Positions 8,712 through 44,601 of a stretch of 64,000 bases of DNA are shown piece by piece; position 1 is the first letter of the stretch, and every line of letters begins with the position of its first letter. Source of the DNA: an uncultured Eubacteriales bacterium (GTDB lineage: Bacteria; Bacillota; Clostridia; Oscillospirales; Acutalibacteraceae). The notes beneath the pieces were generated by a model. That model was not told the DNA's origin. It made no database searches and worked only from the letters and a program-made list of their open reading frames with translations. The position numbers were made by a program, and so were the translations under genes. The stretch is taken from assembly GCA_964527585.1 (NCBI GenBank), contig CAZGPE010000003.1:26723-90722 (forward strand), in the 5' to 3' direction.

Positions 8712-8845
8712 AAAATAAGCACCCCGAAAGGTGCTTGAAAACACCTTATCTTTCGGTTGAATAAACCGCAGGAATTAGCACCTTGCATAAGCAGGTTGCC
8801 GTGGCATCATAGGGCCTGTCCCTCCGCCACTCTCTATAAGGAGAT
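8712..8845 (-). promoter_or_regulatory. SAM-I (S-box) riboswitch with intrinsic terminator, leader of metK
   Basis: The reverse strand reads TTATAGAGAGTGGCGGAGGGACAGGCCCTATGATGCCACGGCAACC...GCAAGGTGCTAATTCCTGCGG...GAAAGATAAGG, matching the conserved S-box core. It is followed by AAGCACCTTTCGGGGTGCTTATTTTT. Confidence 0.93.
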
Positions 8846-9550: not shown

Positions 9551-9702
9551 AACCCCGAAGATAAAACTTCGAGGCGGAAAAACAGAATAATACATCTTCT
9601 TCCATCCGGACTTTAACCGTCGGTTTCGGAATTTCACCGAATCAGCAAAACGCTCGCAGACTGTACTGCCGGTGGGGAATTTCGCCCCGCCCCGAAGACA
9701 AC
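9551..9702 (-). promoter_or_regulatory. FMN (RFN) riboswitch plus terminator, leader of the ribU-like gene
   Basis: The reverse strand reads GTCTTCGGGGCGGGGCGAAATTCCCCACCGGCAGTACAGTCTGCGAGC...GATTCGGTGAAATTCCGAAACCGACGGTTAAAGTCCGGATGGAAGAAG, matching the RFN consensus. A hairpin CCTCGAAG/CTTCGGGG plus a T-run follows at 9551..9577. Confidence 0.93.
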
Positions 9703-9924
9703 TTTTTTGATTTTTTTTATTATTATATTCCCGAAATTTATATATGTCAATATAAACAAAACAAAATCTAAAACAATGTAACATATTAACAAAATTTAAT
9801 TTATATTAAAAAAACATTACAATTAAAATAAATTTATTATTATTAAGATGAAAAACAAAGTAAGAGGTGATTTAAGATGGTTTAATCGGCAGATAAATTT
9901 ATTTTATTATTATGAGGTGATATT

Positions 9925-18800: not shown

Positions 18801-18902
18801 GTGAAAGAGATGATGAAAATCATCTCTTTTTTCTTTCTTGAGATTGACTATGTTATCAACTTTTGGTATTATATTTCTATAATAAAAACAACGGAGGATA
18901 AG

Positions 18903-19700
18903 ATGGAAAAGTATTATGATTATTGCGACCATATCGAGAATACGCTAAGCGCTTTTTCCGATAATAAAACGAATTACATCTTCAAAAAAAGAACACTTGA
19001 CGAGATGGAAGTCCGTACCGGAGAAGTTATTAAAAGAGGATTGAAAGATAAAAAAGTTGCTCACGATTTAATTCTCGATGAATATAATTCCGACAGAATA
19101 TTAAGAGATTACAAACAGTATCTCGAAGTTCTTAAAGAAAAAAGAATGGTTAAACTTGTTCCGCTTGTTTCTCTGATTTGTGTGCTTGCGGCAGTGCTTG
19201 TTTATTTGTGCATAGGTTTTATTTTTGATGTTTGGCATCCGACTTGGCTTCTTATCGAGGGTACGGCAACTGCCGGCGTAATGGCAATAATGCTTACTGC
19301 CGTTACAGTGCTTCGTCGCCGCAAAAAATTCTATGCTTTAATGAGGGTTATCGTTGCGGGTTCGATAATGGTCGGAACGCAGTTTTTGTTCCTGTTTATC
19401 AGAATACTTTTCGATAATGAAAACGCATATCTTATTTTCCTTTTTGCGCTCGCAATGATGTTTATCGGAGATTTAATTCTCGCAACCGTTACCAAACAGA
19501 GACTCGTATTTGTAAATTATCTTATAACAATACCCGTTGTGTTTATTTTCGCATTTGTTATTTTCGGGCTTGTTACTAAACTTTGGAGTATCGGAAGAAT
19601 AATAATTATTGTCGGCTTTGTTTTGGATCTCGGGGTAATAGCCGCAATGATAATTCGCAATAAAAAACTTGCATATAATCCTGAGGAGGACGACAGATGA
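18903..19700 (+). CDS. Hypothetical polytopic membrane protein (cytoplasmic helical N-domain plus about 5 TM helices)
   Basis: ATG at 18903 sits behind GGAGGA. The 265-aa product begins MEKYYDYCDHIEN.... Its stop overlaps the start of the next gene (ATGA). Confidence 0.65.
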   Translation: MEKYYDYCDHIENTLSAFSDNKTNYIFKKRTLDEMEVRTGEVIKRGLKDKKVAHDLILDEYNSDRILRDYKQYLEVLKEKRMVKLVPLVSLICVLAAVLVYLCIGFIFDVWHPTWLLIEGTATAGVMAIMLTAVTVLRRRKKFYALMRVIVAGSIMVGTQFLFLFIRILFDNENAYLIFLFALAMMFIGDLILATVTKQRLVFVNYLITIPVVFIFAFVIFGLVTKLWSIGRIIIIVGFVLDLGVIAAMIIRNKKLAYNPEEDDR

Positions 19701-20977
19701 AGAAAAAATTAAATGCGGAACTTTGGGATAAAATGCATTATCTTTTCCGTGATTTCAATGACCGAATGGTTCATGTCGAATTGCATTATGATTTTGAAAT
19801 AGATATTGAAGTGCTTAAAACCGTTCTTATTTGTTTCCTTGAAAAAGCACCGGTTCTTCACTCTTCGTTTGTCGATAACAAGGTTAAACCTTACTGGAAA
19901 ATCAACGATTACGATATAGACGAAGTGCTTCATGTTTCCCGTCCCGAAAATCTTGATGAAGCAATAAACGATTTTCTCACTCAGTATATTCCGCCGGAAA
20001 ATAAACTTCAAATTCAGGTTGCGGTATTTTTCAGCGAAGGCAAATCAGTGCTTTGTATAGTCGAAAACCATATGTGTATGGACGGCGGAGACTTTAAGTA
20101 TTTTATGAAAGCGCTTTGTAAGAACTATAACGATTATCTCGAAAACAAGATAAGTCCGATTGATTTGAAGTCGGGTTCCCGTTCTTTTGAGGAAGTTTAC
20201 AGCGATTTTTCAAGTACCGAAAAGAAAATGGCTGAAAATCTTTATAAAAATGTTTGCGCAAAAGATGACCACAAATTCCCTCTTACTCCCGACAGTATCA
20301 GGGACCGCTCTTTTATCGCCCGCAGGAAATTCGACAAAGAAAAGTTTTCCCGCTTAAGAGCATCTGGTAAAAATCTCGGCGCTACGGTTAACGATATGCT
20401 TGTTGCCGCTTATTTTTACAGCCTTTACGAGCTTGCCGGATTTAAGCGTGATGAAAGCGTTACGATTTCGTGTGCGATTGACTTGCGCCGTCATATGAAA
20501 GATACAAGCGAAACCGGAATCACAAATCAAACCGCATTTATGCAGTGTAATATCAGCGAGTTGGGAGAAGACATATTCCAAACTCTCGAATATACCAAAC
20601 AAAGTGTCAGCAAGTTCAAAAACGATAAGTTTATGGGACTTTACGGCTTACCTCTTTTGAAACTCGGATACAGCATAATGCCGCAAATGGCTTCCGAAGA
20701 AGTTATCAAAGTCGGATATTCAAATCCGCTTATCGCAATGAGTAATATAGGTGTTCTTGAGACGGATAAACTTTCTTTGGACGGTCATCCGCCGATCGAC
20801 GGATTTATGACGGGCGCTGTTAAATATAAGCCTTATGTACTTTTGTCCGCAACATCTATCAATTCGGAACTTACACTTTCGATGTGTGTTCGTGGTAACG
20901 AAGAAGATGAAAAGACAGTCGAAAGATTTTTCGACCTTATGGAAGAAAATATCGAAACTCTTTCATCGAAAGCATAA
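19697..20977 (+). CDS. Stand-alone condensation-domain-like (HxxxD) acyltransferase
   Basis: 426-aa soluble protein with NHMCMDGGD (codons around 20069..20092). This is the HHxxxDG-type catalytic motif of NRPS C-domains, PapA5, WS/DGAT and alcohol acetyltransferases. It is translationally coupled to the preceding membrane protein. Confidence 0.7.
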   Translation: MKKKLNAELWDKMHYLFRDFNDRMVHVELHYDFEIDIEVLKTVLICFLEKAPVLHSSFVDNKVKPYWKINDYDIDEVLHVSRPENLDEAINDFLTQYIPPENKLQIQVAVFFSEGKSVLCIVENHMCMDGGDFKYFMKALCKNYNDYLENKISPIDLKSGSRSFEEVYSDFSSTEKKMAENLYKNVCAKDDHKFPLTPDSIRDRSFIARRKFDKEKFSRLRASGKNLGATVNDMLVAAYFYSLYELAGFKRDESVTISCAIDLRRHMKDTSETGITNQTAFMQCNISELGEDIFQTLEYTKQSVSKFKNDKFMGLYGLPLLKLGYSIMPQMASEEVIKVGYSNPLIAMSNIGVLETDKLSLDGHPPIDGFMTGAVKYKPYVLLSATSINSELTLSMCVRGNEEDEKTVERFFDLMEENIETLSSKA

Positions 20978-21066
20978 AATTATTAAACAGGCGACCGACA
21001 AGTGTTTTATTAAACGCTTTAAGTTGCCTGCTTTTTTATATTTTGTACTGTGAAGGGAACAGATTG

Positions 21067-21996
21067 ATGAATATACTTCATATCAGATATGCCGTTGAAG
21101 TTGCAAAATACGGTTCGATAAACAAAGCAAGTGAAAAACTCCTTATCGCCCAGCCGAATCTCAGCCGTTCGATAAAAGAACTCGAAGCGGAATTGGGAAT
21201 AACGATTTTTGACAGAAGTTCAAAAGGTATGGTTTTAACCGTTGAAGGCGAGCGTTTTATAGGATATGCGAAAAATATATTAAAACAAATCGACGATGTC
21301 GAAAAACTATATAAAGAAAATGCCGGTGTCGAACGCAAAAATTTTTCCGTTTCCGTTCCGAGAGCAACATATATTTCGGATGCTTTTGCCGCATTTTCGA
21401 AAATGATAGGCGATAAACCCGTAGATGTTTTTTACAAAGAGACAAATTCTTCGAGAACGATAACAAATGTTGTTTCCGATAATTATAAACTCGGTATTGT
21501 GCGTTATGCTCAGAATTACGAAAAGTATTTTACGGCTTTGTTTGAAGAGAAGAATTTGAAATACGAAGATATTTCGAATTTTAATTATGTTCTTGTTATG
21601 AGTAAAAACAGCCCTCTCGCTGATTGCGAAGAAATACATTTCGAAGATTTAAGACCGTTTATCGAACTCGGCCACGCAGACCCTTATGTTCCGTCGCTTT
21701 CGCTTGCGGAAGTTAAAAAAGAAGAACTTCCGGATGATGTGGAGAGACGAATATTCGTTTTTGAACGGGCGAGTCAGTTTACCGTGCTTTCGAAAAACGA
21801 AGAGACATTTATGTGGGTATCTCCGATGCCCGAAGAGATACTTTGCCGCTACGGTTTGGTTCAAAAAATTTGTCCGGACAATAAAAAAATATATAAAGAT
21901 GTTTTGATTTATCATAAAAACTATAAGTTAACGGATCTTGATAAAAAATTCATCTCTCAAGTTCATATTGCAAAAGAAAAGCACATTGTATTATAA
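21067..21996 (+). CDS. LysR-family transcriptional regulator
   Basis: MNILHIRYAVEVAKYGSINKASEKLLIAQPNLSRSIKELE is an LTTR HTH, followed by a substrate-binding-like C-terminal domain. The start was trimmed to the ATG at 21067. Confidence 0.9.
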   Translation: MNILHIRYAVEVAKYGSINKASEKLLIAQPNLSRSIKELEAELGITIFDRSSKGMVLTVEGERFIGYAKNILKQIDDVEKLYKENAGVERKNFSVSVPRATYISDAFAAFSKMIGDKPVDVFYKETNSSRTITNVVSDNYKLGIVRYAQNYEKYFTALFEEKNLKYEDISNFNYVLVMSKNSPLADCEEIHFEDLRPFIELGHADPYVPSLSLAEVKKEELPDDVERRIFVFERASQFTVLSKNEETFMWVSPMPEEILCRYGLVQKICPDNKKIYKDVLIYHKNYKLTDLDKKFISQVHIAKEKHIVL

Positions 21997-22043: not shown

Positions 22044-22067
22044 CGTTATATCAAAAATGATATAACG
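22044..22067. promoter_or_regulatory. Perfect palindrome CGTTATATCA-N4-TGATATAACG (candidate operator)
   Basis: 10-bp perfect inverted arms between the LysR gene and adhE. Confidence 0.5.
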
Positions 22068-22084
22068 ATATACTTATTTAATTA

Positions 22085-22113
22085 TTCACAGGGACTCAAT
22101 TCATTGTTAAAAT
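22085..22113 (+). promoter_or_regulatory. Putative adhE promoter
   Basis: TTCACA (22085..22090), a 17-nt spacer, then TAAAAT (22108..22113). The GGAGG RBS is at 22131. Confidence 0.5.
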
Positions 22114-22121
22114 ATTAACAA
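22104..22121. promoter_or_regulatory. Rex (redox-sensing repressor) operator, Clostridial type
   Basis: TTGTTAA-AATA-TTAACAA is an exact match to the TTGTTAANNNNTTAACAA Rex box. It overlaps the putative -10 of adhE. Confidence 0.7.
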
Positions 22122-22142
22122 TGAAATTTTGGAGGATTGACT

Positions 22143-24800
22143 ATGAGCACTAAAGAATACAAAATCGTAGACAGTGTTGAAGGACTCGAAGAGGCTATTG
22201 TCCGTGTAAGAGCGGCGCAAAAAGAGTATTCGACCTTTACACAGGAACAGGTTGATAAAATTTTCTTGGCAGCGGCTACCGCAGCTAACCAGCAGAGAAT
22301 TCCTCTTGCGAAGTTGGCTGTTGAAGAAACAGGTATGGGTGTTGTCGAAGATAAGGTTATCAAAAACCATTTTGCTTCCGAGTATATTTACAATGCATAT
22401 AAAAACACAAAAACCTGCGGTGTTATCGAAGAGGATAAGGCTTACGGAATGAAAAAAATCGCCGAGCCGATCGGTCTTGTTGCTGCGGTTATTCCCACAA
22501 CAAACCCCACATCTACCGCAATCTTTAAGACTCTTCTTGCTCTTAAGACAAGAAACGGTATTATTATCAGCCCTCATCCCAGAGCAAAAGGTTCAACAAT
22601 CGCAGCTGCAAAGGTTGTTCTTGAAGCGGCCGTAAAAGCAGGTGCACCGGAAGGAATTATTTCTTGGATTGATGTTCCGAGCCTTGAAATGACCAATATG
22701 ATTATGAAAGAGGCTGACATTATCCTTGCAACAGGCGGACCCGGAATGGTTAAAGCCGCTTATTCTTCGGGCAAGCCGGCTCTCGGTGTCGGTGCAGGTA
22801 ACACTCCCGCAATTATCGACGATACAGCGGATATTCTTCTTGCCGTAAACTCGATTATTCACTCAAAAACATTTGATAACGGTATGATTTGTGCTTCGGA
22901 GCAGTCTGTAATCGTACTTGATAAAGTATATAATGAAGTTAAGAAGGAATTTGCGGCAAGAGGATGTTATTTCCTTAATGCCGACGAAACCGAAAAAGTA
23001 AGAAAGACAATTCTTATCAACGGCGCTCTTAACGCTAAAATTGTCGGGCAGAAAGCGGCTACAATCGCAGAACTTGCAGGCGTTACCGTTCCTGCCGGAA
23101 CAAAAATTCTTATCGGTGAAGTTGAAAGCGTAGATCTTGCCGAAGAATTCGCACACGAAAAACTTTCTCCCGTTCTTGCTATGTATAGAGCAAAAGACAT
23201 TCAGGACGCTTTCTCTAAGGCAGAAACACTTGTTGCCGACGGCGGATACGGTCATACTTCGTCAATTTATCTTGACGAAATTACTCAGAAAGACAAATTG
23301 GAAGAATTCGCATCCCGTATGAAAACTTGCCGAATTCTTGTAAATACACCTTCTTCTCAGGGTGGTATCGGTGATTTGTATAACTTCAAACTCGCACCTT
23401 CGCTTACTCTCGGCTGCGGTTCTTGGGGCGGTAACTCCGTAAGCGAAAATGTCGGAGTTAAACATCTTATCAATATCAAGACTGTTGCAGAAAGAAGGGA
23501 AAATATGCTTTGGTTCAGAGCTCCTGAAAAAGTATATCTCAAAAAGGGTTGTTTGCCCGTTGCTCTTGACGAACTTAAAACCGTTATGGGCAAGAAAAAA
23601 GCATTTATCGTAACCGACAGCTTCCTTTATAATAACGGTTATACAAAACCGATTACCGATAAACTCGATGAAATGGGAATTCAGCATACAACTTTCTTCG
23701 AGGTTGCTCCCGATCCGACACTTGCTTGTGCTAAGAAGGGTGCCGAGCAAATGAAAGCATTCCAGCCGGATGTTATTATCGCACTCGGCGGCGGTTCCGC
23801 AATGGACGCAGGAAAAATTATGTGGGTTCTTTACGAGCATCCCGAAGCTGACTTTATGGATATGGCAATGCGCTTCCAGGATATCCGTAAGCGTATTTAC
23901 ACTTTCCCGCATATGGGCGATAAAGCATATTTCGTAGCGATCCCGACTTCAGCGGGTACCGGTTCGGAAGTTACTCCTTTTGCAGTAATCACCGACGAAG
24001 AGACAGGCGTTAAATATCCGCTTGCCGACTATGAACTTCTTCCCAAAATGGCTATTATCGACGCAGATTTCCATATGTCCGCACCTAAGGGACTTACTTC
24101 TGCATCAGGTATTGACGCTGTAACACACGCACTTGAGGCTTATGCTTCGATTATGGCAACCGATTATACAGACGGCCTTGCTCTTAAAGCTCTCAAGATT
24201 ATTTTCGAATATCTTCCCAGAGCATACGATAACGGTCCTAACGATCCCGAAGCCCGTGAAAAGATGGCTAATGCCGCAACAATGGCAGGTATGGCATTTG
24301 CCAACGCCTTCCTCGGTGTATGTCATTCAATGGCTCATAAACTCGGTGCGTTCCACCATATCCCTCACGGTGTTGCAAATGCACTTATGATTGATGAGGT
24401 TCTTCGTTTTAATGCTGCCGAAGCACCCACAAAGATGGGTACTTTCTCTCAGTACGATCATCCTCATACTCTTGCAAGATATGCTGAGGTTGCCGATTAT
24501 CTCGGAATTAAGGGCAAAAACGATTCCGAAAAACTCGAAAATCTCATTAAGGCAATTGACGAACTTAAAGAAAGAGTCGGCATTAAACCCACAATCAAAG
24601 ATTATGTTGCCGACGAAAAAGATTTCCTTGACCGTCTTGATGCTATGTGCGAGCAGGCGTTCGACGATCAGTGCACAGGTGCAAATCCGAGATATCCGTT
24701 GATCAGCGAAATTAAGCAGATGTATCTCAACGCATATTACGGAAAGACATTTGTCGAAACGGAAATGCCTGACGAGAAACAGTTAAAAAGCAAAAAATAA
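22143..24800 (+). CDS. adhE: Bifunctional acetaldehyde-CoA / alcohol dehydrogenase
   Basis: About 885 aa. The N-terminal ALDH domain has a catalytic Cys (GMICASEQS). The C-terminal iron-ADH domain has GGGSAMDAGK and the His cluster HSMAHKLGAFHHIPHG. Confidence 0.96.
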   Translation: MSTKEYKIVDSVEGLEEAIVRVRAAQKEYSTFTQEQVDKIFLAAATAANQQRIPLAKLAVEETGMGVVEDKVIKNHFASEYIYNAYKNTKTCGVIEEDKAYGMKKIAEPIGLVAAVIPTTNPTSTAIFKTLLALKTRNGIIISPHPRAKGSTIAAAKVVLEAAVKAGAPEGIISWIDVPSLEMTNMIMKEADIILATGGPGMVKAAYSSGKPALGVGAGNTPAIIDDTADILLAVNSIIHSKTFDNGMICASEQSVIVLDKVYNEVKKEFAARGCYFLNADETEKVRKTILINGALNAKIVGQKAATIAELAGVTVPAGTKILIGEVESVDLAEEFAHEKLSPVLAMYRAKDIQDAFSKAETLVADGGYGHTSSIYLDEITQKDKLEEFASRMKTCRILVNTPSSQGGIGDLYNFKLAPSLTLGCGSWGGNSVSENVGVKHLINIKTVAERRENMLWFRAPEKVYLKKGCLPVALDELKTVMGKKKAFIVTDSFLYNNGYTKPITDKLDEMGIQHTTFFEVAPDPTLACAKKGAEQMKAFQPDVIIALGGGSAMDAGKIMWVLYEHPEADFMDMAMRFQDIRKRIYTFPHMGDKAYFVAIPTSAGTGSEVTPFAVITDEETGVKYPLADYELLPKMAIIDADFHMSAPKGLTSASGIDAVTHALEAYASIMATDYTDGLALKALKIIFEYLPRAYDNGPNDPEAREKMANAATMAGMAFANAFLGVCHSMAHKLGAFHHIPHGVANALMIDEVLRFNAAEAPTKMGTFSQYDHPHTLARYAEVADYLGIKGKNDSEKLENLIKAIDELKERVGIKPTIKDYVADEKDFLDRLDAMCEQAFDDQCTGANPRYPLISEIKQMYLNAYYGKTFVETEMPDEKQLKSKK

Positions 24801-24826
24801 ACTTTGAATTTACGGAGGTTTGTTTT

Positions 24827-25576
24827 ATGAAATTAGATAATGTTATCGCAACAAGAAAAGCAAAAAAGGTTTACAGAGACGGGGATAAGTGCATAAAAGT
24901 CTTTGATAAGGATTATTCAAAGGCCGATGTTCTTAACGAAGCTCTTAACCAGGCAAGAATCGAAGAAACGGGACTTAATATTCCGAAAATCTTCGAGGTT
25001 ACGACAATTGACGGAAAATGGGCAATTGTTTCCGAGTTTATCGAAGGTGAAACTTTGGCTGAACTTATGGAAAAAAATCCCGATAAAAAAGATGAGTATC
25101 TCAATACGCTTGTTGATGTTCAACTTGAAATTCAGTCAAAGACCTGTCCTTTGCTTAATAAGTTAAAGGATAAAATGAACTCAAAAATATCTCAGGCTGA
25201 TCTTGATGCAACTACAAGATACGAACTTCATACCCGACTTGAAGGTATGCCCAAGCATAAAAAAGTATGCCACGGGGATCTTAATCCTTCAAATATTGTT
25301 GTTACGGAAAACGGCGAATGTTATGTAATCGACTGGTCTCACGCAACACAGGGTAACGCTTCTGCGGATGCGGCAAGAACTTATCTTCTTTTCTGCCTTA
25401 AAGGTGAAGAAGAAACCGCTAAAAAGTATCTTGATATTTTCTGCAAAAAGAGTGATACGGCAAAACAGTATGTTGAAAAATGGCTTCCCATCGTAGCGGC
25501 TTCTCAATCTGTTAAAGGCAACGAAGAAGAGCGTAAACTCTTACTCAGTTGGACCGATGTTGTTGAATACGAATAA
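24827..25576 (+). CDS. Protein-kinase-like fold phosphotransferase (APH/choline-kinase-like)
   Basis: 249 aa with GGAGG 8 nt upstream. It has the catalytic loop CHGDLNPSNIVV and the metal-binding IDWS motif. The N-lobe lysine context is CIKVF. Confidence 0.8.
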   Translation: MKLDNVIATRKAKKVYRDGDKCIKVFDKDYSKADVLNEALNQARIEETGLNIPKIFEVTTIDGKWAIVSEFIEGETLAELMEKNPDKKDEYLNTLVDVQLEIQSKTCPLLNKLKDKMNSKISQADLDATTRYELHTRLEGMPKHKKVCHGDLNPSNIVVTENGECYVIDWSHATQGNASADAARTYLLFCLKGEEETAKKYLDIFCKKSDTAKQYVEKWLPIVAASQSVKGNEEERKLLLSWTDVVEYE

Positions 25577-25606
25577 ACTTAACCTGTTGTTTAAGAAGGG
25601 ATAAAT

Positions 25607-27034
25607 TTGAGAAAATTCGATACGAAAGTTCAATATCTTAAATATAAGGTCTTGCGTGAAGTTGCCAAACAGGCTTGGAACGGCACTTTGCTTCAAAATC
25701 TTCTTGATATACCTATGATTGTCGTTCCCGGCGATGAGCCGACAATGAGATGCTGTGTATATAAAGAAAGAGCAATTTTGACAGAGCGTGTAAAACTCGC
25801 AATGGGAGGAAACAAAGAAAATCCCAATGTGATTGAAGTAATTGATATAGCTTGCGACGAGTGTCCCGCCGCAGGCTATGAGGTTACCGATTCCTGCCGA
25901 GGCTGTCTTGCACACCGATGCGAAGATGTTTGTAAAAAAGGTGCTATTTCTTTTGACCAGAACCATGTTGCGCATATTGATAAGTCAAAATGTGTAAACT
26001 GCGGACATTGTGCCAAGGTTTGCCCGTATTCTGCGATAGCGAACCGTAAAAGGCCGTGTCAAAACGCTTGTAAGGTTAAAGCAATTACAATCAACGAGAA
26101 AAATGCGGCTTCGATAAAAAACGAAAAATGTATATCGTGCGGAGCGTGTGTTTATCAGTGTCCGTTCGGTGCGATAAGCGATAAATCGTTTATTGTAAAT
26201 GTTGTCGAGATGCTTAAAGATAAGATAAGCGGAAAACATAAGGGTAATCTTTATGCGGTTGTCGCTCCTTCTGTCGCAAGTCAGTTTACTTATGCCAAAC
26301 TCGGTCAGGTTATAACCGGTATTAAATCACTCGGTTTTTCAAAAGTTATTGAAGCGGCTCTCGGTGCCGATATTGTCGCACAGTCCGAAGCTGCCGAACT
26401 TGCCGAAAAAGGCTTTTTGACGAGTTCCTGCTGTCCTGCATTTGTATCGTATATAAAATCGGCATATCCGGACCTTGTTCCTCTTATTTCACACAATCTT
26501 TCTCCTATGGCGGCGATTTCAAAATACATAAAAGAAAAAGAGCCTGATGCGAAAATTGTGTTTATCGGACCTTGTACTTCAAAAAAGAAAGAGTTTCAAC
26601 TCGATACTGTCAGAGAATATGTTGACAGCGTTTTGACTTTTGAGGAACTTCAGGCTTTACTTGACAGCCGTGAAATCGAAATAACCGAATTGGAAGAAAG
26701 CGTTCTTGATGACGCTTCGTATTTCGGAAGAATTTTTGCTCACAGCGGCGGACTTTCTCAGGCTGCGGCTGAGGCACTCAAAGAGCAGGGGAATACCGAT
26801 TTCGAACTCAAACCGATTGTTTGCGACGGAATTGAGCAATGTAAAATCGCTTTGCTGAAAAAAAGCAAAGGTGTACTTGATGCCAATTTTATCGAGGGTA
26901 TGGCTTGTGCCGGCGGTTGTATAAACGGAGCCGGATGCCTGACCCACGGCGATGAAAAAAACAAAATGCTTGTTGAAAAGTACGGCAAACAGGCAGGGGA
27001 TAAGACGATTTCGGATTCGGTTAACTCACTTTGA
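25607..27034 (+). CDS. Monomeric [FeFe]-hydrogenase-type protein with an N-terminal ferredoxin-like cluster domain
   Basis: H-cluster motifs are TSSCCP (L1), GPCTSKKKE (L2) and EGMACAGGCINGAG (L3). There are two Cx2Cx2Cx3CP motifs plus extra N-terminal cysteines. TTG start. Confidence 0.88.
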   Translation: MRKFDTKVQYLKYKVLREVAKQAWNGTLLQNLLDIPMIVVPGDEPTMRCCVYKERAILTERVKLAMGGNKENPNVIEVIDIACDECPAAGYEVTDSCRGCLAHRCEDVCKKGAISFDQNHVAHIDKSKCVNCGHCAKVCPYSAIANRKRPCQNACKVKAITINEKNAASIKNEKCISCGACVYQCPFGAISDKSFIVNVVEMLKDKISGKHKGNLYAVVAPSVASQFTYAKLGQVITGIKSLGFSKVIEAALGADIVAQSEAAELAEKGFLTSSCCPAFVSYIKSAYPDLVPLISHNLSPMAAISKYIKEKEPDAKIVFIGPCTSKKKEFQLDTVREYVDSVLTFEELQALLDSREIEITELEESVLDDASYFGRIFAHSGGLSQAAAEALKEQGNTDFELKPIVCDGIEQCKIALLKKSKGVLDANFIEGMACAGGCINGAGCLTHGDEKNKMLVEKYGKQAGDKTISDSVNSL

Positions 27035-27052
27035 TAAAACAAAGCATAAATA

Positions 27053-27084
27053 AAAGGTTCGGTATTTTTACCGAACCTTTTTTG
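27053..27084. terminator. Bidirectional terminator (hydrogenase operon / ABC operon)
   Basis: AAAGGTTCGGTA / TACCGAACCTTT perfect 12-bp stem with a TTTT loop and flanking A/T runs. Confidence 0.9.
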
Positions 27085-27094
27085 TTACCCGTTA

Positions 27095-38592: not shown

Positions 38593-38679
38593 TGGTGCCG
38601 GTGGCCGGGGTCGAACCGGCACGGTATCGCTACCACTGGATTTTGAGTCCAGCACGTCTGCCAATTCCATCACACCGGC
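38593..38679 (-). tRNA. tRNA-Leu (anticodon CAA), class II with a long variable arm and encoded CCA
   Basis: The reverse strand reads GCCGGTGTGATGGAATTGGCAGACGTGCTGGACTCAAAATCCAGTGGTAGCGATACCGTGCCGGTTCGACCCCGGCCACCGGCACCA. The cloverleaf has acceptor GCCGGTG/CACCGGC, anticodon loop CTCAAAA and T-loop GGTTCGA. Confidence 0.93.
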
Positions 38680-38838: not shown

Positions 38839-41800
38839 ATGAACAGAAATTTCAAAAAAATCGAGAGTGTGGTATTAAGCGTAATACTTATAATGCTTAT
38901 GCTTACACCCGGATTCAGTGTAGTTGCCACTGATCCGACAATTACGATTACCGATGAAGACGGTGCGGAAATCACCGAGGCGGTAACCGTAAAAGAATAC
39001 GGAAATGTCAAACTCAAATATGTTCTTTCCGAAGATGTTCCCGAAGACGCAACAGTCGAATGGGAAAGTAACCTTCCTTTGCTCGCCGGAGTAGACGAAA
39101 ACGGAAAGGTAACGGGTTATGACTATTCGAAAGCCGCAATAATACAGCTTTGGCTTGACGAAGAAGTCAGACCTATTCCGATTGTCGGTCCGACTACGGC
39201 GGCTGCGATTGAAAAAGCAATTGAAAACAGTGGATATGATCTTGAAACCGTTAATACCGATTTGCTTGTTGCACTTGTTAGGGGTGTTGCCGGTGATTCG
39301 ATTGCGGACAGTCTTAAAGAATACCTTGATAATATGAATGTTGAGGTAACCGCTACCGTTTACGATGCCGACGGAAACGCTCTTTGCAGCGATACGGTTG
39401 AAATACTCGTTACACAAAGTACCGTTGCTTCCGTTGCACCGACCGGTGTTCATATTACAAACAAGAAAAAAGTTCCGCTTAAAGTCGCTTTGGGCGCAAC
39501 AGTTCAGCTTTACGGTGCCGTAACTCCCGTAAGACTTAAGCAAGGTGTTAAGTGGAGCGTTGACACAAGCATTTTTTCGGGTTCGACAAAAAATGCGACG
39601 GTTACCGATGACGGACTTGTAACTTTCACGGGTATCGGTGAAGCGAAAATTAAAGTTCAGCCCGAAAGCACGCTTTATGCCGCTTTTTCGGACAGCATAA
39701 CATTTGAAGTCGTAGATCCTTCCGAACTTCCCGTAACCGATTTTGATATTACCGGTACATTGAGTGTAAACGAAGGCGAGACAACTCAGCTTTCAATAGA
39801 AAATCTCGATCCTGCCGGTGCATACACGGGAGATATTGTTTGGACAACTTCGGATCCGTTGATTGCGGTAGTTGACGCAACAGGCCTTGTAACCGGACTT
39901 GACGGCGGTTCGATCAGTAAAAGCGTTGACATTACGGCAACACTCGGAGAGGTTACGAAAACAGTAAGCGTAACCGTTAAAAGAAGCGGAATAACCGGTT
40001 CACTCTCGGGAATTGAAATCGAGGGCGAAACCGTAATCGCAAACGATGCAACTTCACAGTATTCTTCGACTCTTTTTCCGTCCCGACTCAACAGTAATAA
40101 GTCAGTTGTAAGAGAATGGGGACTTGTCGATAAGGAAAATGCCGACAACATCGTTTGGGCAACAAGTGAAACTCCCGCAGAAATCTCAATCGCAAGTGTT
40201 GACTGCAACGGTCTTTTAACACCGAAATCAAGCGGTGTTATCACCCTTGTTGCAAAAGCGACATATAACGATTCTTCTGTTCAGACTTCGATAGAAATTA
40301 CGGCGGGAAACGCCGTTACCGATTTTACGATAACCGGTAAAACAAGTGTAACCGAAAACTCGACAATTCAGTTGAGTATCGAAAATATCGCACCGGATGA
40401 TTATGACGAGGCGTTACTTTCGACTGTTAAATGGTCAAGTGCCGATCCGTTAATAGCAAGTGTTGACGAAAACGGTGTCGTAAAAGGTCTTGATGCAGGC
40501 GGATACGGTACTTTCAACAGTTCCAAAACCACAATTTACGCAACTATAAGCGGTGTTACACGCTCTTTTGAAATAACCGTTAAAGGTGCGTTTATAAACT
40601 ATGTAACATCTGCGAGAATTGAAGGCTTTGATTATGTAATTAAAGATTTTCCCGTTCAGTATCAGGGAAAATTCACTCCGGAAAGACTTGATATAACCAC
40701 AACTCTCTGGGGCCTTCCGACCGACGAAGGCGAAGCGCCTTGGGAAGCATCAAATTCATTAAGTAAAGCCGATAACACCGAAAACAGTATTGCAAGCGTT
40801 TCTTCTTCGGGCGTTGTAACCGGTAAAACAGCAGGCGAGACAACTCTTCATCTTTTCGGAAGAAGATTGCTCACTTCTCATAACGAAACGACCAAAGATA
40901 TAACGGTAGTTGAAATTGAACCGAAAAGTATTACCGTTACTCCGCCTACGGCGACCGAATATGTCGAAGGGGACACACAGCTTGATCTTACAAATCTCAA
41001 AGTCGAACTCACTTATGACAGAGCGGACATTGAGCAGTATTACGGTGATACATCGGAACTTTATACCGATGAACAGTTAAGAGTTGAAGTAACCGATTAC
41101 ACCGTCAGCGAAATAAATCAGAAAATTCTCGATACGGAACAGTATATAGTTATTTCGGTGGTAAGAGCGGGAAAAACTTTCCGTGGCGTTTTTGCGATTA
41201 CTCTTGCTTCTAAAGATCTAACAAGCATTGAATTGACCAATCCTCAGTACAGATATTTGGAAGGTGCGACAAAACTTGATTTGAGTGAACTTAAAGTTTT
41301 GGCGAATTACAGCAATGCCGAAAGCGAATATGTAACGGATTATGATGTTGATAAGGATTTGTTTGATCCCACTCTTTATAATGAAGAACAGCAAATAACC
41401 GTCAGTTATTCCCATGCGGATAAAACCGCAACCGCAACCTTCCCCGTTATAGTTTACGGTATACCGGTTGTCAGTGTTGACGAAAACGGATATGGCGGCG
41501 AGTGGACAGATAAAGATGTTACATTTACTCTTTCTTCCACAAACGAACTCGAAGGAGTAACTTACTATTTCCGTAATTCCGAAGATGCCGATTGGATTGC
41601 GGTTTTGGATAACACGGTAACCGTTAATAAAAATGTCAATGAAACTTATTATTTCAAAGCGGTAAACAGCGCAAATGTCGAAAGCGAATCGACTAAGGGC
41701 TATGTTGTAAAAAGAGACGATGTTACACCTTCATTTACGCTCGAAAAAGAAAACGAAGCCTTAACCAATCAGTCATATAACATAAATATTAAAGATTTAA

Positions 41801-44601
41801 CTGTCGGTATATCCGGTGTTAAGTCGATTACTCTCAACGGAAGCGATATAACTTCAAATGATAGTTTTACCGTTGAAGAAAACGGAGAATATACCGTAAC
41901 GGTAACTGCGAATAACGCTTTGAGTTCAAGTGTAATCGTAAAAGTCGAGAATATTGATAAAGATGCTCCGATTGTAAATTCGGTTTCGTTTGAACATAAG
42001 GTTAAGGGCGGAATTGCGAGAATTATCAACACTTTAACTTTCGGAAAATTCTTCAATGAAGATGTTGAGGTAACTATTGACTGCGAAGATGTCGGAGTCG
42101 CCGGTATAGATAGGGTTGAATACAGACTTCTTGATGAAAACGCTCAGCCTGTCGGTGAAGGATGGAACCTTTATTCCGAATCCGATAAACCGACGGTAAC
42201 TTCGACTTTCAGAGGATATATTCAGGCAAGAGCAATTGACAAAGCGGGAAATACTTCTTCTTATCTTCGTTCCGACGGAATTGTGATTGATGCCGATATA
42301 CCTACGGATGTAACGGTCAGCGCAACCTTTAACGGCGAAGAGTATACCGACGGAAAATGGGTATCGGACAATGTTAAAATCATCCTTTCGTCAACCTCAT
42401 TTTCCGGAATTTACGAATATCTTTACCGTGTTGACGGGGGAGAATGGGAAACTGCCGAAAACGGAAAAGTAACCGCCGACCTAATAGGCGAACATAAATA
42501 TGAGTTTAAGGCTGTTTCGAATTCCGATCTTGAAAGTAATATTACGGAATTTAATGTAAAAATAGATAAACAACTTCCCGTAATCCGTGTTGATTTCAAA
42601 GGCACTTTCGGAAGATGGACGAGCGATGATGTTATCTTTACGCTTTCGACAATGGAAGAGTCGCTTTCCGGAATAACTTATTATTACACCGACGGCAGCG
42701 GAGAATGGATTGAAATTCAAACAGGCGAAGAAATTGCACTTAAAGAGAACGCAAAAGCGAATTATTCCTTTAAGGCGGTTAACGCAGCCGGAACGGAAAG
42801 TCCTCCGTCAGACGCTTATTATGTAATGATAGATAATGTCGTTCCGACCTTGGAATATACAAAATCTCAGATTTCAAATGATGAATTGTCGCTTACCGTA
42901 AATCTTACAGCTACAACAGGTGAATCCGGAATTAAAAAGATTACCGTTGACGGAAGAGATATAACCGAAGATAAATCGTTTAAGGTAACGGCTAACGGAA
43001 CTTATAATGTTAAAGTTTTTTCCAACAGCGGACTTTTCTGTGAGGAAAACATTGTAATTGACGATTTTGATACCGTTAAACCCGAAATTAACGCAGTAAC
43101 ATTCAAACAGCTTGAAGGTAATTCGGTAATAAGAGTGGTGAATTCTTCCGAATTTGCCGTATTTATGAATAATAAAACCGAAATTACCGTTGATGCCTCG
43201 GATGATAATTCAGGAATTGAAAAAATCGAGTATAGATTTGTCGGAAACGACGGAAATACCGTCGGAGACTGGACTGAATACAATAATCTTTCCAAGCCGT
43301 CAATCGAATCGTGCTTCAGCGGGAAAATCGAAGCGAGAGCAACCGATAAGGCAGGAAATATTTCTTCGGTTTATACTTCGGAAAAAATAACCGTAGATGT
43401 TTCGGCTCCGAGTAAGGTTGATATTAACGCTTATACATCGGATGGCGTTTATAACGGAGGTTATACCGATAAATCGGTTAAAATCGAACTTTCATCTACT
43501 GCATTTTCGGGCATTTATCAGTATGAATACAGAGTTGACGGCGGAGAATGGTCGGTTCTTAAATCGAATTCACTCACTGCGCTTGACGGAGTTCATACTT
43601 ATGATTTCAAATCTGTTTCTTATTCGGGACTTGAAAGTGAAATTTCTTCGCTTACCGTAAAAACAGATAAATCAAAACCGATTTTGAGCGTTACCGTAAT
43701 CGGAGAACTCGATTCTTCGAAAAACGATGAAGCGACATTTGTCCTTTCAGTGTCAAACTGTAATTCTCAAGTAACTTATTACTATAATGACGGTTCGGGA
43801 TTTAAGGCGCTTAAGACCAATATTTTGACAGTTGAACTTTGCTATGCGAGAACATATACTTTCAAAGCGGTAACTTCAGCGGGACTTCAAAGTGATGTTT
43901 CGAAAGAATATACTTGTGTAATCAGCAAAAATGCGCTTGAAAAAATAATCGAAAAAGCGGAACTTATTTCACTTACCGATGCAACCGAAACTTCGTCGGA
44001 AAATTTACTTAAAGCCGTTGCCGACGGAAAATCCGTTCTTGAAAACGATGATGCGACATCTGTGCAGGTAAGTCAGGCGATCGAAAAAATTGCCGATGCA
44101 ATTGATAAAGTAGAATTGAAAAAAATTATTACCGCTTCTCAGTCTCAAATCGTTATCGACCGCTTGCAAAACGAGGTAGCCTCATATATGATAGGTTTAA
44201 CCTTGGGTGAAAACTCAGTCGATGAAATTAAAGACAGCCTCGAAAACAAAAGTGTTCAGATAATTATCGAAAAAGACGGCAGTGTTCTTGCCGACAGTGA
44301 ACTTGTCGGAACCGGATGTGTTGTTAAATGCGTATCGTCAGCGGATCCTTCTGTTGTTTACGAAACCGCAACTGTGATTTTATACGGCGATGTTAACGGC
44401 GACGGAAAAGTTGATGAGACTGATACGGATATTCTTATGTCAAATGTTTTCGGAATGAACGGAATTGATAAAGATTCGGTTTATTTCATTGCCGGCGATT
44501 TGTCCAAAGACGGCGTAATAGATATGTTCGATTTGTTCTATGCCGACGGTATTTCATCGGGTGAGAGATGTTTCGATCAAACTAAAACGCTTTATAAATA
44601 A
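38839..44601 (+). CDS. Giant secreted non-catalytic Ig-like repeat protein with a C-terminal type I dockerin
   Basis: 1920 aa with the signal peptide MNRNFKKIESVVLSVILIMLMLTPGFSVVA. It has Big_2-like and Big_3-like domains, a duplicated roughly 370-aa supermodule and a FIVAR-like helical segment. The dockerin reads GDVNGDGKVDETDTDILMSNV...GDLSKDGVIDMFDLFYADGI. Confidence 0.9.
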   Translation: MNRNFKKIESVVLSVILIMLMLTPGFSVVATDPTITITDEDGAEITEAVTVKEYGNVKLKYVLSEDVPEDATVEWESNLPLLAGVDENGKVTGYDYSKAAIIQLWLDEEVRPIPIVGPTTAAAIEKAIENSGYDLETVNTDLLVALVRGVAGDSIADSLKEYLDNMNVEVTATVYDADGNALCSDTVEILVTQSTVASVAPTGVHITNKKKVPLKVALGATVQLYGAVTPVRLKQGVKWSVDTSIFSGSTKNATVTDDGLVTFTGIGEAKIKVQPESTLYAAFSDSITFEVVDPSELPVTDFDITGTLSVNEGETTQLSIENLDPAGAYTGDIVWTTSDPLIAVVDATGLVTGLDGGSISKSVDITATLGEVTKTVSVTVKRSGITGSLSGIEIEGETVIANDATSQYSSTLFPSRLNSNKSVVREWGLVDKENADNIVWATSETPAEISIASVDCNGLLTPKSSGVITLVAKATYNDSSVQTSIEITAGNAVTDFTITGKTSVTENSTIQLSIENIAPDDYDEALLSTVKWSSADPLIASVDENGVVKGLDAGGYGTFNSSKTTIYATISGVTRSFEITVKGAFINYVTSARIEGFDYVIKDFPVQYQGKFTPERLDITTTLWGLPTDEGEAPWEASNSLSKADNTENSIASVSSSGVVTGKTAGETTLHLFGRRLLTSHNETTKDITVVEIEPKSITVTPPTATEYVEGDTQLDLTNLKVELTYDRADIEQYYGDTSELYTDEQLRVEVTDYTVSEINQKILDTEQYIVISVVRAGKTFRGVFAITLASKDLTSIELTNPQYRYLEGATKLDLSELKVLANYSNAESEYVTDYDVDKDLFDPTLYNEEQQITVSYSHADKTATATFPVIVYGIPVVSVDENGYGGEWTDKDVTFTLSSTNELEGVTYYFRNSEDADWIAVLDNTVTVNKNVNETYYFKAVNSANVESESTKGYVVKRDDVTPSFTLEKENEALTNQSYNINIKDLTVGISGVKSITLNGSDITSNDSFTVEENGEYTVTVTANNALSSSVIVKVENIDKDAPIVNSVSFEHKVKGGIARIINTLTFGKFFNEDVEVTIDCEDVGVAGIDRVEYRLLDENAQPVGEGWNLYSESDKPTVTSTFRGYIQARAIDKAGNTSSYLRSDGIVIDADIPTDVTVSATFNGEEYTDGKWVSDNVKIILSSTSFSGIYEYLYRVDGGEWETAENGKVTADLIGEHKYEFKAVSNSDLESNITEFNVKIDKQLPVIRVDFKGTFGRWTSDDVIFTLSTMEESLSGITYYYTDGSGEWIEIQTGEEIALKENAKANYSFKAVNAAGTESPPSDAYYVMIDNVVPTLEYTKSQISNDELSLTVNLTATTGESGIKKITVDGRDITEDKSFKVTANGTYNVKVFSNSGLFCEENIVIDDFDTVKPEINAVTFKQLEGNSVIRVVNSSEFAVFMNNKTEITVDASDDNSGIEKIEYRFVGNDGNTVGDWTEYNNLSKPSIESCFSGKIEARATDKAGNISSVYTSEKITVDVSAPSKVDINAYTSDGVYNGGYTDKSVKIELSSTAFSGIYQYEYRVDGGEWSVLKSNSLTALDGVHTYDFKSVSYSGLESEISSLTVKTDKSKPILSVTVIGELDSSKNDEATFVLSVSNCNSQVTYYYNDGSGFKALKTNILTVELCYARTYTFKAVTSAGLQSDVSKEYTCVISKNALEKIIEKAELISLTDATETSSENLLKAVADGKSVLENDDATSVQVSQAIEKIADAIDKVELKKIITASQSQIVIDRLQNEVASYMIGLTLGENSVDEIKDSLENKSVQIIIEKDGSVLADSELVGTGCVVKCVSSADPSVVYETATVILYGDVNGDGKVDETDTDILMSNVFGMNGIDKDSVYFIAGDLSKDGVIDMFDLFYADGISSGERCFDQTKTLYK
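41466..43928 (+). repeat. Protein-level tandem duplication inside the giant gene: supermodule copy 1 (41466..42590), copy 2 (42591..43692) and a partial third copy (43693..43928)
   Basis: Collinear similarity is visible, e.g. GEWTDKDVTFTLSS/GRWTSDDVIFTLST, GISGVKSITLNGSDIT/GESGIKKITVDGRDIT, GIDRVEYRLLDENAQPVGEGW/GIEKIEYRFVGNDGNTVGDW, ARAIDKAGNTSS/ARATDKAGNISS and YRVDGGEWE/YRVDGGEWS. Confidence 0.85.

Follow-up and report, generated by a model that had tools for sequence, protein, structure and literature searches.

A predicted Rex-controlled operon that joins adhE, a kinase-fold gene, and a group B [FeFe]-hydrogenase gene, a likely reduced counterpart of a Ruminococcus albus 7 cluster

We analyzed a 64-kb stretch of DNA from an uncultured Eubacteriales bacterium (contig CAZGPE010000003.1). 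This whole stretch is referred to as the window, and all coordinates are window positions. Our subject is three genes that follow one another on the + strand: adhE, a gene for a kinase-fold protein, and a [FeFe]-hydrogenase gene. The first (22143..24800, +) encodes a bifunctional acetaldehyde-CoA/alcohol dehydrogenase of 885 amino acids (aa), which scored 1404.8 bits against NCBIfam NF010378 (cut-off, 951) and is 77% identical to AdhE of R. albus 7. Its start is most likely the ATG at 22143, which is preceded by GGAGG at 22131-22135 and gives the length called in relatives; a TTG at 22137, taken from a mechanical listing of open reading frames, is less likely. The stop codon is TAA at 24798-24800. 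The second gene (24827..25576, +; stop codon at 25574-25576) encodes a 249-aa phosphotransferase with the APH/choline-kinase fold, identified with Pfam APH, an AlphaFold (AF2) model, and Foldseek. It is an orthologue of R. albus Rumal_3402, and we refer to it as the kinase. The third gene (25607..27034, +) encodes a 475-aa monomeric group B [FeFe]-hydrogenase of the HydA2/HfsD type (NCBIfam TIGR04105, 563.9 bits; cut-off, 450), which is 74% identical to R. albus HydA2. This protein has two N-terminal 4Fe-4S dicluster domains and intact H-cluster motifs (TSSCCP at 272, PCTSKKKE at 322, and EGMACAGGCING at 430), and it falls in group B. The hydrogenase start (25598-25609) is uncertain by 9 nucleotides (nt); the window has TTG, and the proteins of close relatives are called at 478 aa, three codons longer.

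The spacers between these genes are short. The adhE-kinase spacer is 26 nt (24801-24826) and contains GGAGG (24814-24818), 8 nt 5' of the kinase ATG at 24827. The kinase-hydrogenase spacer is 30 nt (25577-25606) and carries AAGAAGGGA before the hydrogenase TTG at 25607. Folding of these two spacers did not exceed that of shuffled sequence (z scores of -1.1 and +0.6, respectively), and a terminator scan found nothing convincing between the three genes. Beyond the hydrogenase gene lies a predicted intrinsic terminator (27052..27087) that would close the operon. Its hairpin (27052-27081) has a 13-bp stem, a folding energy (dG) of -18.4 kcal/mol, and a z score of -4.8, with 0/200 shuffles as good, and is followed by a U-run, UUUUUUGUU. 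This predicted terminator is bidirectional and also serves convergent ABC-transporter genes. A search with Rfam found no riboswitch or other RNA element within the operon region.

Upstream of adhE, the best match in an 8-kb promoter scan was a candidate sigma-70-type promoter (22085..22113, +), TTCACA-17-TAAAAT, which matches at 10/12 positions and has an extended TG before the -10 element. A predicted Rex operator, TTGTTAAAATATTAACAA (22104..22121), overlaps this -10. It is a zero-mismatch example of the clostridial Rex consensus, TTGTTAAnnnnTTAACAA. It is also the sole such site in the 64 kb, and 0/100 shuffles yielded one. Rex-like sites with at most two mismatches were found in about 40 related loci, 29-176 nt 5' of adhE or, where rex precedes adhE, 38-52 nt 5' of rex. 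Rex represses adhE and hydrogenase genes at low NADH/NAD+ in fermentative Clostridia. With its -10 covered by a Rex operator, the operon should therefore be de-repressed as NADH/NAD+ rises. The rex gene itself was not found in the window by tblastn.

About 20 nt 5' of the -35 element, between lysR and adhE, there is a perfect 10+10 palindrome, CGTTATATCA-AAAA-TGATATAACG (22044..22067). It folds with a z score of -6.0 (0/200 shuffles as good), and its core, TTATCAAnnnTTGATAA, is kept at the same position in the promoters of relatives despite differing flanks. This palindrome may act as an operator for LysR, as a (weak) terminator of lysR, or as both. An alignment of seven promoters had three conserved blocks in the fixed order palindrome, -35 region, and -10 with its overlapping Rex box. 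The LysR-type transcriptional regulator gene, a conserved 5' neighbor of the cluster, is at 21064..21996 (+; Pfam HTH_1, 64 bits), and its product is 62% identical to the LysR protein encoded 5' of rex-adhE on R. albus 7 pRUMAL01. An earlier note on this DNA had described much of this anatomy: the adhE stop at 24800 followed by 26 nt with GGAGG and a 249-aa kinase-fold gene, the kinase stop at 25576 followed by 30 nt and the hydrogenase gene, no hairpin with a T-run before 27053..27084, a promoter overlapped by a perfect Rex box, and a LysR gene immediately 5'. All of these features were found.

The kinase orthologue of R. albus 7, which is the homologue with the best annotation, lies in a longer cluster on the plasmid pRUMAL01, where the order is LysR, Rex, AdhE, "phosphotransferase," two 2Fe-2S proteins, HydS, a SpoIIE phosphatase, and HydA2 (Rumal_3399-3407). 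(In the pRUMAL01 annotations HydS is a [FeFe]-hydrogenase-domain protein and HydA2 is a 4Fe-4S protein.) The "phosphotransferase," Rumal_3402, is 70.6% identical to the window kinase. When R. albus was grown with an H2 consumer, a "putative eight-gene cluster" was the locus most strongly down-regulated (Greening et al. 2019, PMC6776011). In that coculture Rumal_3400-3407 fell 90-130-fold together (PMC6776011 Table S7): Rumal_3400 (Rex) changed -130 fold, Rumal_3401 (AdhE) -121 fold, Rumal_3402 ("aminoglycoside phosphotransferase," the kinase orthologue) -114 fold, Rumal_3403 and Rumal_3404 -109 and -107 fold, Rumal_3405 (HydS, group C3) -122 fold, Rumal_3406 (SpoIIE) -101 fold, and Rumal_3407 (HydA2, typed as group B in the supplementary file) -90 fold. 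The phosphatase, but not the kinase, is discussed in that paper (PMC6776011). A tblastn search of the 64-kb window found no HydS/HfsB, no SpoIIE/PP2C phosphatase, and no thioredoxin-like 2Fe-2S protein. Therefore, any H2 sensing is either absent or encoded elsewhere.

We compared the gene neighborhood across relatives in two locus scans, one of species genomes and one of metagenome contigs. Both covered mostly relatives with kinases 64-80% identical to the window kinase, and the deep diversity of the family rests on seven contigs of distant members. The species-level survey comprised 80 loci (kinases 71-80% identical). The gene immediately 5' of the kinase was adhE in 70/70 of the loci with at least 1 kb upstream, and the median adhE-kinase gap was 18 nt (73 loci with both genes). 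This answered the question that the earlier note had put to a gene-neighborhood search, as far as the adhE-kinase pair is concerned. Downstream of the kinase, 38/62 of the loci with sufficient sequence there had one or two thioredoxin-like 2Fe-2S proteins, a PAS-domain HydS, a SpoIIE/PP2C protein, and a group B hydrogenase. Another 3/62 had a partial downstream module, and 21/62 had no hydrogenase genes there. The downstream genes of the "adhE-kinase only" loci included no conserved partner.

The kinase-hydrogenase half of the neighborhood fared differently. A direct junction as in the window was found in 0/80 species loci. However, the same LysR-adhE-kinase-hydrogenase order, together with the same flanking genes, was present in close relatives (kinase 92% identical, hundreds of metagenome contigs), and a group B hydrogenase gene was directly 3' of the kinase in two further distant lineages. 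The adjacency noted earlier thus recurs in close relatives and two distant lineages, but most relatives have the ferredoxin(s), HydS, and PP2C in between. Judged by these gene orders, direct adjacency is a derived, reduced state.

Distant members (37-43% identity) had rex or LysR, the kinase, and then ferredoxin-HydS-PP2C-hydrogenase, with no adhE. Three long contigs (L084, L087, and L088) carry this adhE-less module in full, and two short ones (L081 and L082) break off in or just after the ferredoxin genes. A LysR gene adjoins the kinase in L084 also, and a LysR homologue was present in 32/54 species loci (those with at least 5 kb upstream). In Collinsella aerofaciens (Actinomycetota), adhE and the kinase (47% identical) occur as a pair alone. 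The metagenome-contig scan agreed with these results and added a few stand-alone kinases. Plasmid homologues at 24-35% identity (Niallia, Clostridium estertheticum, and Methylorubrum) were in unrelated contexts. Homologues below about 35% identity lose the context, and therefore the kinase represents a distinct subfamily. Across the loci compared, the kinase is the most constant member of the neighborhood; adhE, the HydS module, the hydrogenase, Rex, and LysR come and go. Its catalytic signature was intact in 40/41 loci without a nearby hydrogenase module. An active site that is kept where the sensor and phosphatase are not nearby suggests a function independent of a neighboring sensor/phosphatase. 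L106 has another arrangement, in which lysR lies between two paralogues of the kinase (67-68% identical to that of the window), upstream of ferredoxin-HydS.

From the DNA sequence, we consider it likely that 22085-27087 is a single adhE-kinase-hydrogenase transcription unit and a reduced orthologue of the R. albus cluster. The earlier note had proposed a single Rex-controlled electron-sink operon, and this proposal is supported by the anatomy, the synteny, the conservation of the Rex box, and the R. albus expression data. The window lineage would have lost HydS, the ferredoxins, the phosphatase, and an in-cluster rex from the locus and retained the kinase along with both electron-sink enzymes. 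The operon would be transcribed from the promoter under the Rex operator, with de-repression at raised NADH/NAD+ and probably an additional input from the adjacent LysR regulator, and it would dispose of reductant as ethanol and H2.

The 249-aa kinase matched Pfam APH (PF01636) over its full length with 55.2 bits (cut-off, 23.2). An AF2 model built from a 30-sequence alignment had a predicted local distance difference test (pLDDT) score of 94.8. The protein has residues K24, E38, H149-G-D151, N156, and D169, which are conserved in its family. Among 109 family representatives, K24 was retained in 104, N156 in 107, D169 in 101, and D151 in 86. With this catalytic set present and conserved, the kinase, with its APH/choline-kinase fold, should be an active phosphotransferase that depends on ATP. 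The best PDB sequence match was LicA choline kinase, over the catalytic loop and the IDW...D motif. The subfamily, of about 250 aa, comprised 336 clusters (50% identity) at E<1e-30. The kinase reached no curated resistance, choline-kinase, or thiamine-kinase model cut-off in NCBIfam, and the resistance models were far below theirs (APH_3p, 33.7 versus 205 bits; APH(4)-Ia, 17.4 versus 725 bits). The RIO1 model scored 43.2 bits (cut-off, 22), but over residues 130-175 only. The Bud32 models scored 43 bits against cut-offs of 125-246. The N-lobe resembles those of Bud32/RIO and StkP protein kinases. The alignment has no GxGxxG Gly-rich loop, and only about 12 residues separate D169 from the next helix, with no activation segment. 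Two side observations concern the active site. In about 10% of the family representatives N replaces the catalytic Asp, and a distant homologue encoded directly 5' of a group B hydrogenase gene (P0172, L099 107-859) has N-C-N in place of H-G-D and may be a pseudokinase.

What does the kinase phosphorylate? We tentatively favor a role as a protein kinase that acts on AdhE, the hydrogenase, or their regulators and that is opposed by the PP2C phosphatase where one is present, though we would put this at somewhat under an even chance. It is favored because the recurrent partners are solely these proteins, because the ancestral cluster includes a protein phosphatase, and because the published model is of the same kind. 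That model is due to Zheng et al. 2014 who, as cited by Eminoglu et al. 2017 (PMC5707799), proposed that HydS uses its PAS domain to signal to the Ser/Thr protein kinase next to it. The earlier note, which knew of no described role for a kinase-fold protein in this context, was therefore mistaken on this point, at least by the account in PMC5707799. The kinase would tune AdhE and/or the hydrogenase, or their regulator, post-translationally. PP2C, where present, would oppose it under HydS control, and in the window lineage kinase action would accompany every induction of the operon. A stronger version might make it a dedicated, HydS-independent post-translational regulator of AdhE and/or the group B hydrogenase, with a conservation that reaches from Oscillospirales as far as Collinsella. 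We consider this version doubtful.

Several observations weigh against this combination of a single operon and a protein kinase. The promoter scan overall was at chance (16 found versus 16.2 expected), so the promoter call rests on position and conservation in relatives and not on the scan. The transcript evidence comes from the R. albus orthologues and not from the window organism. Three kinases with 64-67% identity (L159, L164, and L171) stand alone, with no adhE or hydrogenase within 6 kb. The kinase also persists without a nearby phosphatase, and therefore a strict kinase/PP2C pair is not required. The Hanks Ser/Thr kinase model PF00069 scored 26 bits (cut-off, 31.7), over residues 133-181 only. 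Finally, the nearest solved folds are small-molecule kinases, and on inspection the C-lobe IDW...GNxxxDAA motif looks choline-kinase/APH-like rather than like a protein-kinase activation loop. (The neighbors of the three stand-alone kinases, read from N-terminal sequences, are RsgA-like, thiamine pyrophosphokinase-like, and UvrA-like.)

Two further ideas were rejected. The 2Fe-2S proteins of the longer clusters were considered as STAS-like phospho-acceptors, but with all four Cys ligands retained they look like true ferredoxins, and nothing supports the idea. PP2C was considered as a protein with its own kinase domain, but its C-terminal approximately 170 aa have no Pfam match even at E<=1. 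This uncharacterized C-terminal domain is shared by PP2C (L089 11944-13113, Rumal_3406) and its orthologues and may receive the HydS signal.

In the main rival reading, the operon is as described but the substrate of the kinase would be a metabolite or cofactor with a link to ethanol/H2 fermentation, not a protein. Such a small-molecule kinase is favored by the fold and the C-lobe motif. In Foldseek the nearest solved structures were APH(3')-Ia, APH(4)-Ia, and LicA (template modeling [TM] scores of 0.6-0.69, 12-20% identity, probability 1.0), and macrolide kinases were also among the top structural matches. The LicA sequence match, the full-length match to Pfam APH, the missing Gly-rich loop and activation segment, and retention of the kinase beside adhE or the hydrogenase with no phosphatase nearby point the same way. 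However, the neighborhood offers no candidate substrate and has no transporter or biosynthetic genes. Its conserved partners comprise only redox enzymes and regulators, a sensor, and a protein phosphatase, and the N-lobe similarity is to protein kinases. Some APH-fold proteins have been reported to be protein kinases, and therefore the fold does not decide the question. We regard a small-molecule substrate as a real possibility but, on balance, an unlikely one.

Another explanation is that the kinase is a dedicated partner of HydS and PP2C only, and a functionless relic in the window lineage, which lost both at the locus. Its presence with HydS and PP2C in most relatives (38/62) fits this, as does the published proposal that, as relayed in PMC5707799, ties it to HydS. 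Several findings argue against it. All catalytic residues are intact in the window protein as well as in the 40/41 module-less loci, and the three-gene order with a full-length 249-aa kinase is common to the relatives whose kinases are 92% identical. Furthermore, 21 species, as well as Collinsella from another phylum, have adhE-kinase pairs with no hydrogenase genes, and HydS and PP2C could be encoded elsewhere in the genome. We consider a relic improbable. Chance adjacency of three genes that are transcribed independently, one of them (the kinase gene) for an ordinary aminoglycoside-resistance enzyme, has in its favor the database names ("aminoglycoside phosphotransferase" and "phosphotransferase") and the APH enzymes as best folds, but it can be dismissed almost entirely given the 70/70 synteny with its 18-nt median gap, the 114-fold coregulation of the R. 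albus orthologue with adhE and HydA2, the resistance models far under cut-off (such as APH_3p), and the loss of context below about 35% identity that marks a distinct subfamily.

Operons of this type, Rex control of them, the logic of ethanol and H2 as sinks, and a proposed kinase role are already in the literature, and therefore the finding is not categorically new. Three aspects appear undescribed: the reduced architecture of three genes, in a gut lineage that is very abundant; the kinase, not HydS, as the constant member family-wide; and the recurrence across two phyla of adhE-kinase and kinase-hydrogenase pairs without the sensor and phosphatase. The kinase is widespread and uncharacterized, and in the one organism tested (R. 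albus) it is coexpressed at the level of AdhE. It is also very frequent in gut and rumen metagenomes, where single 90%-identity clusters occur on 100-300 contigs. AdhE sets ethanol output, and the choice that fermenters make between sinks is only partly understood. Group B [FeFe]-hydrogenases are reported to be the main H2 producers of the human gut (PMC12578642). If the HydS-independent version of the protein-kinase reading is true, both phosphorylation and Rex-dependent transcription would set the split between ethanol and H2 in very abundant fermenters of the gut and rumen, and H2 sensing would reverse the phosphorylation mark where HydS and PP2C are present. The three-gene operon has the kinase without the sensor or phosphatase and is therefore a simple natural system for finding its substrate.

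Other features of the window are an FMN riboswitch (9590-9703, - strand; 113 bits), a SAM riboswitch (8743-8842, - strand; 88.5 bits), a tRNA (38596-38679, - strand), and a very large open reading frame of 1920 aa (38839-44601, + strand). Directly 5' of lysR (18801-20977) are genes for a polytopic membrane protein and a 426-aa stand-alone Condensation-domain protein (PF00668), and this pair is kept in close relatives.

The likeness to known systems can be set out at several levels. As a protein, the kinase shares with the APH/choline-kinase family (PF01636) its fold, the strand-3 Lys, the helix-C Glu, HGDxxxxN, and IDW with a conserved downstream Asp, but it belongs to a separate subfamily of about 250 aa with its own gene context. 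As a regulated locus, the operon resembles the Rex regulon of fermentative Clostridia, with a perfect operator over the -10 of the adhE promoter. Nothing about this is unusual. The window itself has no rex gene.

The hfsABCD operon of Thermoanaerobacterium encodes a small HfsA, a PAS-domain HfsB, a phosphatase HfsC, and a hydrogenase HfsD, and it is described as the counterpart of the HydS-to-HydA2 segment (PMC11837493). Deletion of hfsB raised ethanol yield and adhE transcription (PMC11837493, PMC5707799). In hfs mutants the alcohol dehydrogenase activity of AdhE changed and its aldehyde dehydrogenase activity did not, which its authors took as a hint of post-transcriptional control (PMC5707799). 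By the descriptions in these papers of T. saccharolyticum and T. thermosaccharolyticum, HfsD equates to R. albus HydA2 and the window hydrogenase, HfsB and HfsC equate to the HydS and PP2C of relatives, and hfs is genetically tied to ethanol yield and adhE expression. This likeness is by description and not by sequence. As described, hfsABCD has four genes, with no adhE and no kinase, and the window has just the HfsD-like member.

The closest comparison is with the R. albus 7 cluster. The window and its close relatives are without rex, both ferredoxins, HydS, and the phosphatase at the locus, and the Rex box is directly before adhE in the window, whereas it is before rex in R. albus. Even so, both have tight spacing and would be under Rex control (by a predicted operator in the window), and they share the order of LysR, adhE, kinase, and a terminal group B hydrogenase, with identities of 62, 77, 71, and 74%, respectively.

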